A stretch of 32,000 nucleotides of DNA. It comes from Candidatus Electronema halotolerans (lineage in GTDB: Bacteria > Desulfobacterota > Desulfobulbia > Desulfobulbales > Desulfobulbaceae). How positions within the stretch are numbered: the first letter of the stretch is position 1; the number at the start of each line of letters is the position of its first letter. Of the stretch, positions 77-17,942 are shown piece by piece. The DNA lies in contig OW818675.1 of NCBI GenBank assembly GCA_942493095.1, positions 2,940,001 through 2,972,000 of the forward strand. The letters are read 5' to 3'. The notes beneath the pieces were generated by a model. That model had not been told where the DNA came from, did no database searches, and saw only the letters and a program-made list of their open reading frames with translations. The position numbers and the translations under genes are program-made.

Positions 77-146
77 TCAGTTTGCTTTTGTTTGAAAAAA
101 ATGATGCGTGACACGTGAAGACCGCCAGGATTTTTTTGTTTTTTCC

Positions 147-175
147 TTGATATTTTTTGCATTTTGTTTTATGTT
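147..175 (+). promoter_or_regulatory. candidate sigma70-type promoter for the 232..2877 cluster
   Basis: TTGATA (147-152), a 17-nt T-rich spacer, then TATGTT (170-175), about 55 nt upstream of the ATG at 232 in an AT-rich intergenic stretch. Confidence 0.35.
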
Positions 176-231
176 AAAAGTAGGTGGAGGTGTGGAAACT
201 GGCAGTTGTTCTCAGTCAAAAGGAGATCAAG

Positions 232-678
232 ATGTGGAAAAAAATGAGTGTCGCAATAGTGTTGGGGCTGTCCCTCAGCCCTTCGGCAGTCATGGCCACG
301 ACTGAGCCGTTCAGTCCTTTTGCAGGTATTGTGGAAGGAATTGCTCAGAGCATGGCCGCTGGCAGCTATGCAAGCGAGTCAAATTATGACGGTGACACCA
401 CCGGCAATGGTGCCCGCATGGCAGGCAACGTGATCATCGGCAGTGAAATGGACAGCCAGCAGCAGGTTGCGGTTGTTGAAGGCACAGTCAGTCTGACGAT
501 GAACGGCAGCAGTGACACTGCTCAGGCGCTGAACTATAACAAGCATAATGGCGGCACAGAGCTGCCAGTGCTGATCATGCAGGGCGCAACCATCAGCGGG
601 GGTGTTGAGATGGCTTCGTCCAACAGCCAAGGATCTGAGCAGGGCATCAATGTGGTGATCGGCGACAGCGGTCTGTAA
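232..678 (+). CDS. small secreted Gly/Ser/Asn/Gln-rich repeat protein, paralogue A (curlin/holdfast-anchor-like candidate)
   Basis: ATG at 232 is preceded by AAAGGAG; the GTG at 184 in the ORF track looks like an artefactual extension. Sec-type signal MWKKMSVAIVLGLSLSPSAVMA. The mature part has no Cys. It shares the blocks VSLtmnGssdtAQALNy and SSNSqGseQGINVV with ORF 799..1245. Confidence 0.75.
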   Translation: MWKKMSVAIVLGLSLSPSAVMATTEPFSPFAGIVEGIAQSMAAGSYASESNYDGDTTGNGARMAGNVIIGSEMDSQQQVAVVEGTVSLTMNGSSDTAQALNYNKHNGGTELPVLIMQGATISGGVEMASSNSQGSEQGINVVIGDSGL

Positions 679-798
679 ATGCTTATGGCATGCAGGCTGG
701 ATATTGCCGTTTCTGTCAGCACTGCGGCTGAAGACCTGAGTGCGGGTTGAGCAGGGAGGAGACTTGCGCCATATTCCGACTGTCAAAGGAGTCCGAGC

Positions 799-1245
799 AT
801 GGAGGGAAAAATTTGTTTAATCATCATCTCTTTGGCAGGATTGGCCTTTGAGCTGCTGAGTCCTCTCAGAGCTGTGGCAGCGGACATGTCAGTGTTTGAT
901 CAGTTTGCTGATGCGTTTGGCAGCGGTCTGTTTCAAGGCGTGATGATCAACAGCGAGTTGAGCTTGGAATCCAATTACAGCAGCGGTAATTTGCAGGGAA
1001 TAAACATTATCGCAGGCAATTACAATGTGAATGCTGTCCAGGTTGTGGCGGTGACAAGTGATGTTTCCCTCAGTCTCTCAGGGGGAGAAAATGCTGTGCA
1101 GGCCCTCAACATCTATCAGGGCAGCGCGGACGGAATAACTCAGATCGCTGTTATTGACGGTTCGGTGAGCATGACTTCATCCAACAGCAGTGGTGGAATT
1201 CAGGGCATCAATGTCATCACAGAGTCCTGCGATTCCTGCAATTGA
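799..1245 (+). CDS. small secreted repeat protein, paralogue B (curlin/holdfast-anchor-like candidate)
   Basis: AAAGGAG lies 8 nt upstream of the ATG. The N-terminus is hydrophobic, ending ..LRAVAA. The motif S-x-S-N-x-S-G-x-x-QGIN-x-I occurs twice (SLESNYSSGNLQGINII and SMTSSNSSGGIQGINVI) and flanks VSLSLSGGENAVQALNIYQG. The C-terminus is ESCDSCN. Confidence 0.75.
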   Translation: MEGKICLIIISLAGLAFELLSPLRAVAADMSVFDQFADAFGSGLFQGVMINSELSLESNYSSGNLQGINIIAGNYNVNAVQVVAVTSDVSLSLSGGENAVQALNIYQGSADGITQIAVIDGSVSMTSSNSSGGIQGINVITESCDSCN

Positions 1246-1250
1246 TGATT

Positions 1251-1589
1251 ATGAAAAAACTGCTTTTTATTCTTGCAGTGGCTGTCTGCTCCTTCCCGCT
1301 TCAGCAGAGCCACGCGGATGACATCAGAATTGCCTCGATTCCAGATGTGAATGTGACTCCAAGTTTGGAGTCTGTTCTCAGGCAGAAAGACAGCATCCTC
1401 CAAGAAACACAGGAAACAACTGGACAGGAAGCGCAGATCAGCACGAACGGATATGTGCTGGATAACGGCAACATTGTGGTTGACAATCTTGCGGAGCCGA
1501 AATGCGTCTTTTATGGCAATTACAATGATGGCTCCGGCGATGCGTTTCAATATATTGACATTGACACCTTAGTGCTTAACTGCCAGTAA
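1251..1589 (+). CDS. small secreted protein of unknown function (possible accessory factor of the locus)
   Basis: Signal peptide MKKLLFILAVAVCSFPLQQSHA followed by DD. Start is ATG 1251 (alternatives at 1245 and 1242), overlapping or abutting the stop of the upstream gene at 1243-1245. Two Cys in the mature part. No family recognised. Confidence 0.65.
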   Translation: MKKLLFILAVAVCSFPLQQSHADDIRIASIPDVNVTPSLESVLRQKDSILQETQETTGQEAQISTNGYVLDNGNIVVDNLAEPKCVFYGNYNDGSGDAFQYIDIDTLVLNCQ

Positions 1590-1695
1590 GTTCCTCCAAG
1601 CGGGAGCCGCAGTCTCATCTCTTTTTCTTCTTTCCTCCCACTCCCACAGCTCCGATGAGAACAATTTCCGTTTTCGTTTAAGGCAGGAGTCAACT

Positions 1696-2877
1696 GTGTT
1701 TTGCCGGGCCAGCAGTCTGAAGATCACGACACCTTGCATCAAGGCGGCTTGGCTGACAGGCGCGGTTCTCCTCATGTTCGCCTTGGCTGGCTGTATCAAT
1801 ACCAGTGTCACGGCCCTATCCAACATCACTGCCGAAACCCCCCAGCCTGCTCTGACCAATCTCACTGAAACCTTGAAGTGCATGGGCGGGAAGATCAACC
1901 AGTCGGACATGAAAGGCATTCTCCTGCTGGTGGATGATTTTTATGACGGCACTGTTCCGGTGCTCTCGGAAAGCAGAGCGGCATTGCTCCGTCAGCCCAG
2001 AGAAAACGGTCCCCTGGCCGACGGCGGCAAGTATGATTTTGAGGCAGTCATCCGCAGGAGCATTTCCAACAAAAAAATCATCATTCCCTATTCCCTGCCA
2101 ACCGGCCTGCTCCAAGAGGACAAATTCGGCGGCCTGCCTGCCGATTATCTGCATGATCTTGCCAAATACTACAAAGCCGCCGCTGTCATCCGCGTCAAAG
2201 GCGTGTTCACTCAGAATGACACCTCAGACAACCTGAACAGCGGTTTTGGCAGCGGAGCTGAGGTCAAAGGCAATGATGGCAAAGGGAAAGTGGAATATGG
2301 CCTGTCCAAAGCGTCACGAAGTCTGTCGCTGACTGTTTATCTGGGCGATGCCTTGAGCAACACCCTCGGCGCGGCCACCACCCTGACCTTGAACACCTAC
2401 ACCAATGCGGATAAATTTTCCATCGGCTTTGGCTACGGCGACAGCAGCATGAGTTTCGCCAAGCAGAACAAGTTGCGGGAAGGCCTGCATGGCGCGCAGC
2501 GGACACTGGTGGAGGCGGCAGTGCTCTGGGCGCTCCGGGGCATTTACGGCCATCTTGATTTTTCCTCCTGCTTGGCATCGGACGGCCCCTCTCCCAACGC
2601 GACTGTGACTGCGTATCAAAAATGGCTGAAGCTGGATGAGCAGGACCGGATCAAATATCTGAAACTCATGCTTCAAGAGCTGGATTATTATCATGGCGAC
2701 ATTGACAAGAATTACGATGCTGATCTCCAGCAGGCAATCAGCGCCTATGAAGCGAAACATGACATGCTGATCCCCCACACAGCCGGCAATCTTAGCGATC
2801 TGTTCATCACCCTCTATTTGGAGGTCGATTTCGACAAAATCGACCAGCTGGCCGAACAGAAGACTGGTCTCTTCTGA
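1696..2877 (+). CDS. outer-membrane lipoprotein, CsgG/HfaB-like core with a C-terminal PG_binding_1-like domain
   Basis: GTG start with GGCAGGAG 7 nt upstream. Lipobox LMFALAG|C. The order of blocks resembles E. coli CsgG: KGILLLVDDFYDGT vs GKIFVSVYNIQDETG; IRVKGVFTQNDTS..GFGSGAEV vs IMVEGSIIGYESNVKSGGVGA; SLSLTVYLGDALSNTLGAATT vs IAVNLRVVNVSTGEILSS; EAAVLWALRGIYG vs SAIETGVIFLIND. The C-terminal LQELDYYHGDIDKNYDADLQQAISAYEAKHDM fits the peptidoglycan-binding repeat L-x-x-L-G-Y-y-x-G-x-iDG-x-fG-x-x-t-x-x-Ai-x-x-fQ. Confidence 0.6.
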   Translation: MFCRASSLKITTPCIKAAWLTGAVLLMFALAGCINTSVTALSNITAETPQPALTNLTETLKCMGGKINQSDMKGILLLVDDFYDGTVPVLSESRAALLRQPRENGPLADGGKYDFEAVIRRSISNKKIIIPYSLPTGLLQEDKFGGLPADYLHDLAKYYKAAAVIRVKGVFTQNDTSDNLNSGFGSGAEVKGNDGKGKVEYGLSKASRSLSLTVYLGDALSNTLGAATTLTLNTYTNADKFSIGFGYGDSSMSFAKQNKLREGLHGAQRTLVEAAVLWALRGIYGHLDFSSCLASDGPSPNATVTAYQKWLKLDEQDRIKYLKLMLQELDYYHGDIDKNYDADLQQAISAYEAKHDMLIPHTAGNLSDLFITLYLEVDFDKIDQLAEQKTGLF

Positions 2878-2991
2878 AACCTTTCCCGTTGACTGTTCCC
2901 CTCTGTTTTCCTACAATAGGATTGATTTTCTTCTCCGCAGGTCTTTCAACCCGGAGTTGTTCCATTTTCATTCATGCAGGAGTGTTCTCAG

Positions 2992-4164
2992 ATGGCAATT
3001 TTCAGCTGCCCGGCAGCGGCTCTGTTCAACGAGCTGGAAACCGAACAAGATGTTGTGATCCTTGATGTCCGCAATGAAAAAGATTTTGCGCGATTCCACA
3101 TTGAAAGCTCCAAGCCGTTCAAACTCTGCAACGTCTCCTATTACAGGTTCATGGAGACTGAAGAGGAGGCGGTCGCTGCCGTGCCACGCGGCCCCGGTAT
3201 CCGCATCACCTGCGCCAAGGAAGGGTCAGCAAAATATGTGGCTGAAATTCTTGACAAGCATGGTTTTGCCAATGTGGCCTATCTTGCAGGCGGCATCAAG
3301 AGCTGGGGCAACATGCTGGTGCCGAAATTGGTTGCCGCCGGACAAGGCTACGAGCTGCACCAGTTCATCCGTCCCGGCAAGGCATCCTGCTCTTATGGTC
3401 TGATTTGCGGCAGGGAAATGATGCTCTTTGATCCCTCCCGCAATGTCGATTTCTACCTTGCCTTTGCCAAAGAAAAGGGAGCGGAAATCACCAAAATATT
3501 TGAAACCCATCTGCAAGCGGATTATATTTCCGGCTCCAGCCAGCTTCTTGAACAGTGCGGGGCTGCGCTCCATGCCAATGCCGAAGATTTCGGCGGCGCG
3601 CAGCTGCCTTTCATTCCGCTTACTGATGGTGAATTCCACAGTTTCGCCAACGGCGGCCCGCAGGTGCAGGTAATCTTCACCCCCGGTCACACGCCCGGCT
3701 CCACCTCCTACATTATTGACGGCAAATACATGCTCTCCGGTGACACGGTCTTTCTCGCCTCAGTGGGCCGACCCGATCTCGGCGGACAGGCAGAGGCGTG
3801 GGCGGTGCGGCTGTATGCCACCATCAGCAGGATTTTGCGTGAATTTGACCGCAGCCTCCAGGTTCTGCCCGGTCATTACATGAACTGGCAGGAGGCTGAT
3901 GCGCGGGCTGTCTTTACGGCAACCTTGGCCGAGGTGATCGAGCGCAACAAGCATATTTACAGCATTGGGACTGAAGCCGATTTCATCCATTTCATCAAGG
4001 AGAACATCCGCCAGCAGCCGGAAGAATACGCCCGCATCCGCCTGATCAATGCAGGCCGGGAGCAGGTGAGTCTCGAAGAAGCGGATCTGCTTGATCTTGG
4101 TAAGAATGAATGCGCCGCCACTGCCCATGCGCAGGCAAAAACGGCCCAGCCAGCCGCCAATTGA
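2992..4164 (+). CDS. rhodanese domain / metallo-beta-lactamase-fold fusion protein (persulfide-dioxygenase-like)
   Basis: ATG 2992 has CAGGAG upstream; the ATG at 2974 is an alternative. The N-terminal rhodanese-like domain has the loop ITCAKEGSA and GGIKSW. The MBL fold shows THLQADYISG (a variant of HxHxDH), TPGHTPGS, SGDTVF and LPGHY. Confidence 0.85.
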   Translation: MAIFSCPAAALFNELETEQDVVILDVRNEKDFARFHIESSKPFKLCNVSYYRFMETEEEAVAAVPRGPGIRITCAKEGSAKYVAEILDKHGFANVAYLAGGIKSWGNMLVPKLVAAGQGYELHQFIRPGKASCSYGLICGREMMLFDPSRNVDFYLAFAKEKGAEITKIFETHLQADYISGSSQLLEQCGAALHANAEDFGGAQLPFIPLTDGEFHSFANGGPQVQVIFTPGHTPGSTSYIIDGKYMLSGDTVFLASVGRPDLGGQAEAWAVRLYATISRILREFDRSLQVLPGHYMNWQEADARAVFTATLAEVIERNKHIYSIGTEADFIHFIKENIRQQPEEYARIRLINAGREQVSLEEADLLDLGKNECAATAHAQAKTAQPAAN

Positions 4165-4181
4165 GCCACAGGACAACCATC

Positions 4182-4967
4182 ATGAAAACAATGCGTTCCC
4201 TGCTGCTTCCAGCCCTGCTGACTGTTCTCCTGCTGCCTGTCTTGGCTGTAGCGCAGGACGAGCTGCCCGCCAGTCCCAAGGCGGAGATATTGATGGCAAA
4301 TGCCCGGCCCAGAGTGGAGCGGCAGCTGGCTGCCAAAGGCATGCAGCTTGGCAGCCCCATCTTTCTCCGGGTCTTCAAACAATCCAAGCAGATTGAAGTC
4401 TGGCTGCGGCAGGGAGACAGGTTCGAGCTGTTTAAAACATATCCGATCTGCACCTATTCCGGCGGCCTTGGCCCAAAACTGCGTGAAGGTGATCTGCAAA
4501 GCCCGGAAGGTTTTTACACCGTGTCCTGGGGCCAGCTCAACCCATCCAGCAGGTTTCATCTCTCCTTTGATATCGGTTATCCCAATGCCGTGGATCGGGC
4601 CAACAAACGCACTGGCAGCCTGATCATGGTGCATGGCCGCTGCATTTCTCAAGGCTGCCTGGCGATGGGGAATCTACAGATTGAAGAAATTTACCTGCTC
4701 GCCTATCAGGCCTTTCTGCATGGACAACAGGCCTTCAACGTTCATATTTTCCCGTTCCGCATGACCAAGGAGAATCTGGCCGAGCACAAAGACTCCCGCT
4801 GGACTGCATTCTGGGAAAATCTCAAGGAAGGCTACGATGCCTTTGAACAGTCTCGCAAAGTGCCCTTCATTGTTGCGGATAATGGCCACTATGCTGTGCG
4901 GTCAGCGGCAATCCGCAACAGTGTGGTGATGATCAACCCGCAGATCGAGGTGAAGGCAAAATACTGA
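4182..4967 (+). CDS. L,D-transpeptidase family protein (YafK-like)
   Basis: Signal peptide MKTMRSLLLPALLTVLLLPVLAVAQ. Contains GDLQSPEGFYTV, NPSSRFHLSFDIGYPNAVDR, and MVHGRCISQGCLAM with the catalytic Cys in the YkuD-type HG..xSxGC motif. Confidence 0.9.
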   Translation: MKTMRSLLLPALLTVLLLPVLAVAQDELPASPKAEILMANARPRVERQLAAKGMQLGSPIFLRVFKQSKQIEVWLRQGDRFELFKTYPICTYSGGLGPKLREGDLQSPEGFYTVSWGQLNPSSRFHLSFDIGYPNAVDRANKRTGSLIMVHGRCISQGCLAMGNLQIEEIYLLAYQAFLHGQQAFNVHIFPFRMTKENLAEHKDSRWTAFWENLKEGYDAFEQSRKVPFIVADNGHYAVRSAAIRNSVVMINPQIEVKAKY

Positions 4968-17916: not shown

Positions 17917-17942
17917 CAGTAGTGTCCGGTTAGGTTTTTGCA
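17917..17942. repeat. IS terminal inverted repeat (transposase 3' side)
   Basis: CAGTAGTGTCCGGTTAGGTTTTTGCA versus the reverse complement of 19171-19196, CAGCAGTGTCTGGTTAGTTTTTTGCA. Confidence 0.85.

Follow-up and report, generated by a model that had tools for sequence, protein, structure and literature searches.

We analyzed a 32,000-nt window (the whole stretch of DNA considered here; contig OW818675.1, positions 2,940,001 to 2,972,000 of the forward strand) from the cable bacterium Candidatus (Ca.) Electronema halotolerans, which carries near its 5' end a cassette of four genes encoding two paralogous repeat proteins (subunits A and B), a small secreted protein with two Cys residues (protein C) and a lipoprotein with remote homology and fold similarity to the curli secretion channel CsgG (Table 1). 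The four co-oriented + strand open reading frames of a preliminary description of this DNA were all confirmed within 232..2877. The gene A product is 100% identical to a database entry of the same organism and the other three also have exact matches, annotated as hypothetical or, for the lipoprotein, merely as "Peptidoglycan binding domain-containing protein". The open reading frame of gene C stands, but its previously assigned start at 1248 is an ATT codon giving 113 amino acids; an ATG at 1245, which overlaps the TGA stop of gene B by 1 base, is the likely start, since it yields 114 amino acids, equal to the length of the exact database entry. The genes had been called tightly spaced, and while their common orientation holds, the gaps of 120 bp between A and B and 106 bp between C and the lipoprotein gene are looser than that.

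Table 1 Features of the four-gene cassette, in window coordinates
Feature	Position	Strand	Basis
AT-rich upstream region with sigma-70-like site (147-175) and ribosome-binding site of gene A	101..231	+	G+C, promoter scan
Subunit A, 148 aa, GCAAIG_13160; Sec signal peptide …SAVMA↓TTEP, followed by a predicted all-beta region of Gln/Asn repeats	232..678	+	
Subunit B, 148 aa, GCAAIG_13165; signal peptide, repeats of 35 residues in 2.5 copies, C-terminal CDSCN	799..1245	+	
Protein C, 114 aa, GCAAIG_13170; signal peptide, two invariant Cys	1245..1589	+	
Lipoprotein, 393 aa, CAK8723392.1; GTG start behind AGGAG	1696..2877	+	
Lipoprotein signal peptide and lipobox LAG↓C (Cys33)	1696..1794	+	
CsgG-like alpha/beta core, about residues 50-285, including loop NGPLADGGKYDFE and invariant Cys62	1843..2550	+	
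Candidate membrane hairpin 1, residues 176-206	2221..2313	+	TM1 alignment, alternation, low pLDDT
Candidate membrane hairpin 2, residues 236-262, KFSIGFGYG-DSS-MSFAK	2401..2481	+	TM2 alignment, alternation, low pLDDT
Helical PG_binding_1-type C-terminal domain, about residues 305-375, after invariant Cys292	2608..2820	+	

Orthologues of the lipoprotein found by a word-indexed search are 55-84% identical to it with 88 invariant columns, and where their source is named it is Electronema, Electrothrix or one of the single-filament genomes of the old "Desulfobulbus sp. F1/F4/TB" label. When 1.84 billion cluster representatives were searched exhaustively with a profile, 361 proteins reached an expectation value (E) <=1e-3, many of which cover the peptidoglycan-binding repeats alone; several dozen full-length relatives, with or without the C-terminal domain, were found at 20-35% identity. 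The preliminary description had seen in the central part of the lipoprotein the block order of CsgG and of HfaB, its holdfast homologue, and had proposed a curli/holdfast-like locus. CsgG secretes CsgA, and HfaB is needed for the surface localization of HfaA and HfaD, both of which form multimers resistant to sodium dodecyl sulfate (PMC6707917). This reading is supported by both profile and structure comparisons over residues about 20-282. The lipobox with Cys33 is present, and it aligns among the orthologues and with the lipobox of CsgG. When a 40-member lipoprotein family was compared by hhalign with an alignment of 11 CsgG/HfaB sequences, taken from E. coli and from plasmids with annotation, the match had a probability (Prob) of 91.4% and an E of 8.9e-7 over 231 columns, spanning query residues 20-282 from the lipobox to helix alphaC. 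A local replicate agreed, and a control with the reversed alignment gave Prob 0.4%, E 0.15 and 66 columns. Five of the 11 CsgG-family sequences were scanned with the Pfam CsgG hidden Markov model (HMM; PF03783), and all five are positive, including the divergent proteins of Variovorax (CP063168.1; 72 bits) and Loktanella (NZ_CP072993.1; 53 bits). These two divergent CsgG/HfaB proteins bridge CsgG to the cable-bacterium family: the HMM of the lipoprotein family scores the Variovorax protein at 25 bits, and this HfaB-like subgroup shares with the lipoprotein a Cys after the N-terminal helix and another after alphaC. Their genes differ from the cassette in that the small proteins adjoining them lack similarity to A, B or C. 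Identity between the lipoprotein and CsgG is about 10-12%. An invariant loop, NGPLADGGKYDFE (residues 104-116), aligns with the constriction-loop region of CsgG, and Cys62 and Cys292, which may form a disulfide, are invariant even among distant relatives. Judged by these sequence comparisons, the lipoprotein is a very distant CsgG relative, in a remote branch lying below the family thresholds.

The AlphaFold2 model of the lipoprotein (predicted local distance difference test, pLDDT, 64; predicted template modeling score, pTM, 0.56) has an alpha/beta core, three strands of 20-22 residues, a long helix spanning residues 257-283 and, at the C-terminus, a domain that is helical and confidently predicted. 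Among its Foldseek matches in the PDB are the CsgG entries 4uv3, 4uv2, 6l7a, 4q79 and 6si7, with E from 1e-4 to 3e-3, probability about 1.0 and about 260 aligned columns. In the hhalign register, residues about 174-206 fall on the transmembrane segment TM1 of CsgG and residues about 233-262 on TM2, the two amphipathic beta-hairpins from which CsgG forms the barrel of its nonameric, 36-stranded pore. These segments show the strongest conserved hydrophobic/polar alternation in the 40-member family, just as TM1 and TM2 do in the CsgG alignment, and candidate hairpin 2 has the highest alternation index in the family. In the model, the hairpin tips (176-205 and 236-262) are the low-pLDDT ends of long beta hairpins. 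We therefore regard these two hairpins, which are amphipathic, conserved and placed like TM1 and TM2 of CsgG, as candidate membrane hairpins.

The domain following Cys292 was predicted as helical with pLDDT 85-95. As previously described, it resembles a PG_binding_1 repeat; the Pfam match (PF01471) is real and marginal, at 23.2 bits against a cutoff of 23.0 (E 7.8e-5, residues 317-356), and is the only match that Pfam and NCBIfam gave for any of the four proteins. Among 40 relatives, Pfam assigned the C-terminal end to PG_binding_1 in 13 (best E 8.7e-7), to SPOR in two and to PG_binding_3 in two. One distant lipoprotein of 297 amino acids (locus L035) stops directly past the second conserved Cys and lacks the domain, so the wall tether is optional. 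The C-terminal domain thus appears, from its distribution, to be a wall-binding accessory and not a core part of the system. Additional C-terminal segments on CsgG-type channels are not unique to the cable-bacterium family, since PF03783 CsgG/HfaB proteins of 447-469 amino acids on plasmids of Salinibacter, Spirosoma and Variovorax (L029, L030 and L033) carry long extensions at the C-terminus, and no second domain was reported for these three by Pfam.

Subunits A and B carry Sec-type signal peptides and are paralogues (38% identical, BLASTP E 2e-6), as the preliminary description had stated. The mature proteins consist to 56-58% of Gly, Ser, Asn, Gln, Thr and Ala, with an isoelectric point of about 4 and a Lys plus Arg content of 0-1.6%, a composition that resembles known functional-amyloid subunits. 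Profile self-comparison revealed an internal repeat of 35 residues in 2.5 copies (Prob 90%, E 1.4e-6). In subunit B the motif Q(G/A)xN(V/I)(V/I) recurs at residues 66, 101 and 135, and the protein chain ends just past the third of these strands, leaving the last repeat incomplete. In an alignment of 16 subunit sequences, six residues beyond the start Met are invariant and all of them are Gln or Asn: N69, Q81, N104, Q115, Q135 and N138. Each cable-bacterium locus has one or more subunits in which a pair of Cys residues immediately follows the last repeat strand, in the form C(D/N)(S/T)CN in type B and C-x2-5-C in type A; in the window only B has it. No match of A or B to any characterized family was found in Pfam, NCBIfam or the PDB.

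Protein C has a signal peptide and a conserved C-terminal motif, EPKCVFYGNYN..G.GDAFQY.D.DTL.L.CQ. Its two Cys residues, noted before, are indeed present and are invariant across 19 homologues. No structure related to the protein C profile was found in the PDB, and hhalign detected no relation to CsgC, CsgE or CsgF. Protein C accompanies the lipoprotein in distant cassettes as well.

To follow the gene neighborhood, we compared the window with 13 distinct loci, that is, 14 cable-bacterium genomes in total. A search for related loci started from one of the family alignments returned cable-bacterium loci only. All 14 genomes have the genes in the order subunit(s)-C-lipoprotein, with two subunit genes in most loci and one in Electrothrix GW3-4, and the flanking genes vary between genera. 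In GW3-4 (L001 7182-8162), a gene for an omptin-like outer-membrane protein begins at the lipoprotein stop codon and a radical S-adenosylmethionine gene lies upstream of the lone subunit gene, neither being conserved elsewhere. Electrothrix YB6 (Ca. E. yaqonensis, CP178758.1) has eight subunit genes (L003 1100-4621). Seven of them form a tandem array with a 537-bp unit, six of these encoding identical 141-aa proteins that end in CEGCQ, and after the array come a single B-type gene, gene C and the gene for a lipoprotein of 512 amino acids, whose C-terminal tail is long and basic. The trio of subunit, C and lipoprotein, or two of the three parts on short contigs, also occurs with lipoproteins of only 20-35% identity on contigs of 37-63% G+C. 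A complete trio is present at L035 5189-6894 (GCA_015486375.1, 37% G+C). The cassette at L010 7050-9125, whose subunit ends in QCLNC, lies between resolvase/recombinase and TraG/TrwB-like genes, a context that suggests mobility, and that at L011 7028-9026 adjoins a PAS-GGDEF-EAL protein, which suggests control by cyclic di-GMP. A 2.8-kb contig labelled Ca. Electrothrix sp. AX5 (L007, QYLK01000505.1, 38.5% G+C) carries a 28%-identical lipoprotein copy with two small upstream genes, and may represent either a second, paralogous cassette of a cable bacterium or a contig that was binned wrongly. The cassette appears from these searches to have a sparse but wide distribution, reaching unrelated metagenomic bacteria.

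This synteny also bears on whether the four genes form one system. The 120- and 106-bp gaps would fit a chance grouping of neighbors, as would the upstream region: the AT-rich stretch previously described there is real (36% G+C at bases 101-200 against about 51-58% nearby), but the promoter placed in it was not borne out, as the weak sigma-70-like candidate TTGATA-17-TATGTT at 147-175 is no commoner than in shuffled sequence. RNA folds in the intergenic gaps were likewise indistinguishable from shuffles, and an Rfam scan of the window gave no matches. Against a chance grouping, the order recurs in every relative examined, including those with 20-35%-identical lipoproteins, while the flanks differ, so that the idea of chance neighbors is effectively refuted.

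On balance, and with moderate confidence, we favor reading the locus as a divergent CsgG-type (type-VIII-like, nucleation-precipitation) secretion cassette, in which a wall-tethered outer-membrane pore would export unfolded, acidic Gln/Asn-repeat subunits with the assistance of protein C, and the subunits would polymerize outside the cell. All four products would leave the cytoplasm by Sec. The lipoprotein would be acylated at Cys33, sorted to the outer membrane and, by analogy with CsgG, oligomerized, the two amphipathic hairpins building a beta-barrel pore and the PG_binding_1 domains tying its periplasmic face to peptidoglycan. The acidic, Lys/Arg-poor subunits A and B would remain unfolded in the periplasm, where the small, presumably disulfide-bonded protein C, the constant partner of the channel, may serve as a chaperone or adaptor. 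Having traversed the pore, the subunits would polymerize as their 35-residue Gln/Asn repeats stack up, giving an assembly that is beta-rich and probably resembles a solenoid. Subunit B is possibly the nucleator or anchor, because it is the better-conserved paralogue and always adjoins C; A is possibly the major subunit, because the A type is the one amplified in YB6. The C-terminal Cys pair may cross-link subunits.

Compared with the curli system of E. coli, the cassette shares the CsgG fold, the block order from lipobox to helix alphaC and the hairpins at the TM1/TM2 positions, as well as the adjacency of two paralogous small secreted proteins with imperfect Gln/Asn-rich repeats and of a small accessory protein, here predicted to be periplasmic. 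It differs as follows: First, the repeats are 35 residues long instead of about 22. Second, the cable-bacterium lipoprotein bears two invariant Cys residues and, at its C-terminus, a PG_binding_1 domain. Third, all genes here lie in one co-oriented cluster, and protein C is unrelated to CsgC, CsgE and CsgF. Caulobacter HfaA/HfaB/HfaD gives a precedent for the channel, as HfaB there serves small multimer-forming proteins (PMC6707917). The Fap system also exports subunits with imperfect Gln/Asn-rich repeats. The channel of that system, FapF, forms a trimeric beta-barrel and has no relation to CsgG. As a class of mechanism, the secretion of repeat subunits by a CsgG-type channel is known; the channel branch is remote and the two partner families are new.

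Several results weigh against a CsgG-type pore and must be set beside those above. The CsgG block order stood up in profile-profile and fold comparisons but not with the Pfam CsgG HMM: HMMER gave no PF03783 match for the lipoprotein at E<=1 (gathering threshold 20.8 bits), and only one of 40 relatives matched (E 0.022). Relatives of about 300 amino acids were considered as bona fide CsgG proteins, but none of ten scanned with this HMM matched. No scanned relative has a significant Pfam match on the lipoprotein core, and PDB searches with the single lipoprotein sequence and with family profiles yielded no significant match; PapG, which appeared at E 0.3 in the profile searches of the locus families, was dismissed. 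Against nine canonical curli CsgG sequences alone, hhalign gave a weak match in unchanged register (Prob 19.5%, E 1.2e-3, 209 columns), and against the single E. coli CsgG it was likewise weak and in register (Prob 14.8%). Adding the Variovorax and Loktanella proteins lifts the probability from 19.5% to about 91%, so the profile match rests on the HfaB-like subgroup as a bridge. Candidate hairpin 1 is fairly polar. On the side of the cargo, A, B and C have no detectable homology to CsgA/B or CsgC/E/F: in agreement with the preliminary description, which had recognized no homologue of CsgA/B/E/F, hhalign against the E. coli proteins stayed at Prob <=7%, and Pfam found neither curlin repeats (PF07012) nor CsgE or CsgF among the locus proteins. 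An AlphaFold2 subunit model built with nine sequences shows an all-beta protein of eight strands and is unreliable (pLDDT 44), and its Foldseek matches are not significant (E>1), led by FapC (E 1.2, which on such a model is not evidence) and followed by beta-helix proteins. Finally, the literature that we searched holds no expression, localization or biochemical data for the locus.

The fold comparison in addition points to a different function. The top Foldseek matches of the lipoprotein model are HpaA of H. pylori (8t8d, E 6e-6) and FlgT (3w1e; its N-domain), non-channel lipoproteins that share its alpha/beta fold; LptE entries are also among the matches, and the TM-scores are modest at 0.4-0.5 on the target. 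The lipoprotein might accordingly be no pore, serving instead as a tether or scaffold of HpaA/FlgT/LptE-like fold between outer membrane and peptidoglycan that organizes A and B as a polymer in the periplasm. The lipid anchor and the peptidoglycan-binding domain, located at opposite ends of the protein, would suit such a role, as would the strong conservation of the orthologues across the cable-bacterium clade (55-84% identity) and the terminal Cys pair on at least one subunit per cable-bacterium locus. Nevertheless, we consider this unlikely. In HpaA, FlgT and LptE the two long, conserved and amphipathic hairpins are absent, and these proteins are not accompanied by repeat-subunit genes; a soluble scaffold would leave the hairpins at the CsgG TM1/TM2 positions unexplained; and the profile homology is specifically to CsgG-family proteins, the lipoprotein having no Pfam match to an HpaA/FlgT-type family and no similarity to one in PDB sequence-profile searches. 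Bacteria other than cable bacteria, differing widely in G+C, moreover have the cassette, and in one of them it is without the peptidoglycan-binding domain.

The subunits could also pass through a channel and yet stay monomeric or oligomeric at the surface, as adhesins or as matrix- or mineral-binding proteins, and not form self-polymerizing fibers. The low confidence of the subunit model is compatible with this, amyloid or polymer behavior of A and B resting on inference, and monomeric beta-helix proteins, for example ice-binding proteins, are among its closest fold matches, which are not significant. We regard it as quite unlikely, since the subunits are small and almost wholly made of repeats, come as two paralogues as do CsgA and CsgB, and end in an incomplete repeat at a conserved QGINV strand, which suits head-to-tail templating. 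The tandem amplification to eight genes suggests, in addition, a bulk structural product.

If the cassette is a CsgG-type secretion system, its product in cable bacteria would most plausibly be an extracellular layer or fiber, for example the putative surface layer or sheath nanofibers. Cable bacteria have a putative surface layer of roughly 3.8 nm (PMC11976967). Strain YB6 forms abundant non-conductive extracellular sheaths of "undefined nanofibers" and has ridges 2-3 times as wide as those of other cable bacteria (PMC12093952). The eight subunit genes of YB6 correlate with its abundant sheaths, a correlation within a single genome. The wide ridges together with the eight genes would also fit the periplasmic scaffold described above, whose A/B polymer could belong to ridge compartments, junction lamellae or the protein matrix of the conductive fibers; for these fibers, the protein part has not been identified, and Cys cross-links to nickel-dithiolene ribbons have been modeled (PMC13534509). 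In a more specific version, the Cys pairs of A and B would cap or cross-link nickel bis(dithiolene) ribbons, A and B being the protein scaffold of an envelope structure specific to cable bacteria, perhaps the matrix or strands of the periplasmic conductive fibers or the junction core lamella, and the wall-tethered lipoprotein their assembly site. This version seems to us very unlikely, because the hairpins and the profile homology favor a CsgG-type pore and the cassette occurs in non-cable bacteria; the overproduction of extracellular sheaths by YB6 is a simpler correlate of the gene amplification for either version. A limited literature search found no paper on the proteins of this locus or on a curli-like system in cable bacteria, and the corresponding Electronema aureum locus tags (CDV28_1575-1578) did not occur in the main texts and supplements searched.

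Other genes of the window include, directly downstream of the cassette, a rhodanese and metallo-beta-lactamase fusion (2974-4164, +), likewise found in Electronema sp. JC (L002 7177-8343) and corresponding to the 'Rho-PDO' discussed for cable bacteria (PMC13047784). It is followed by a YkuD-type L,D-transpeptidase with a signal peptide (4110-4967, +; the real start is probably near 4182), a wall-modifying enzyme two genes from the wall-binding lipoprotein; this transpeptidase gene is also present in Electronema JC (L002 8369-9181). Farther downstream are a 432-aa MACPF (perforin-like) protein (19180-20478, -; Pfam E 1e-19) adjoining a DDE transposase (17930-19078, -), two adjacent c-type cytochrome genes (20423-22192 and 22235-23605, both +) with Cytochrome_C554/C7 and cbb3-type/c1-like heme domains, and an mnmE-jag-yidC cluster (26547-30485, -), an arrangement typical of the neighborhood of replication origins.

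CsgG-like pores serve as sequencing nanopores, and nanopore technology may take interest in a pore that is highly divergent and whose constriction loop differs; the supplements of NanoporeDB do not mention Electronema or Electrothrix. For the bacteria themselves, the cassette would add to CsgG-type outer-membrane secretion a new branch, one missed by current domain libraries, together with a Gln/Asn-repeat subunit family and a two-Cys accessory family. Being clade-wide in cable bacteria, with subunit genes amplified eight-fold in the strain that has the most sheath and the widest ridges, it names testable candidate proteins for the surface layer, the sheath nanofibers and the fiber protein.

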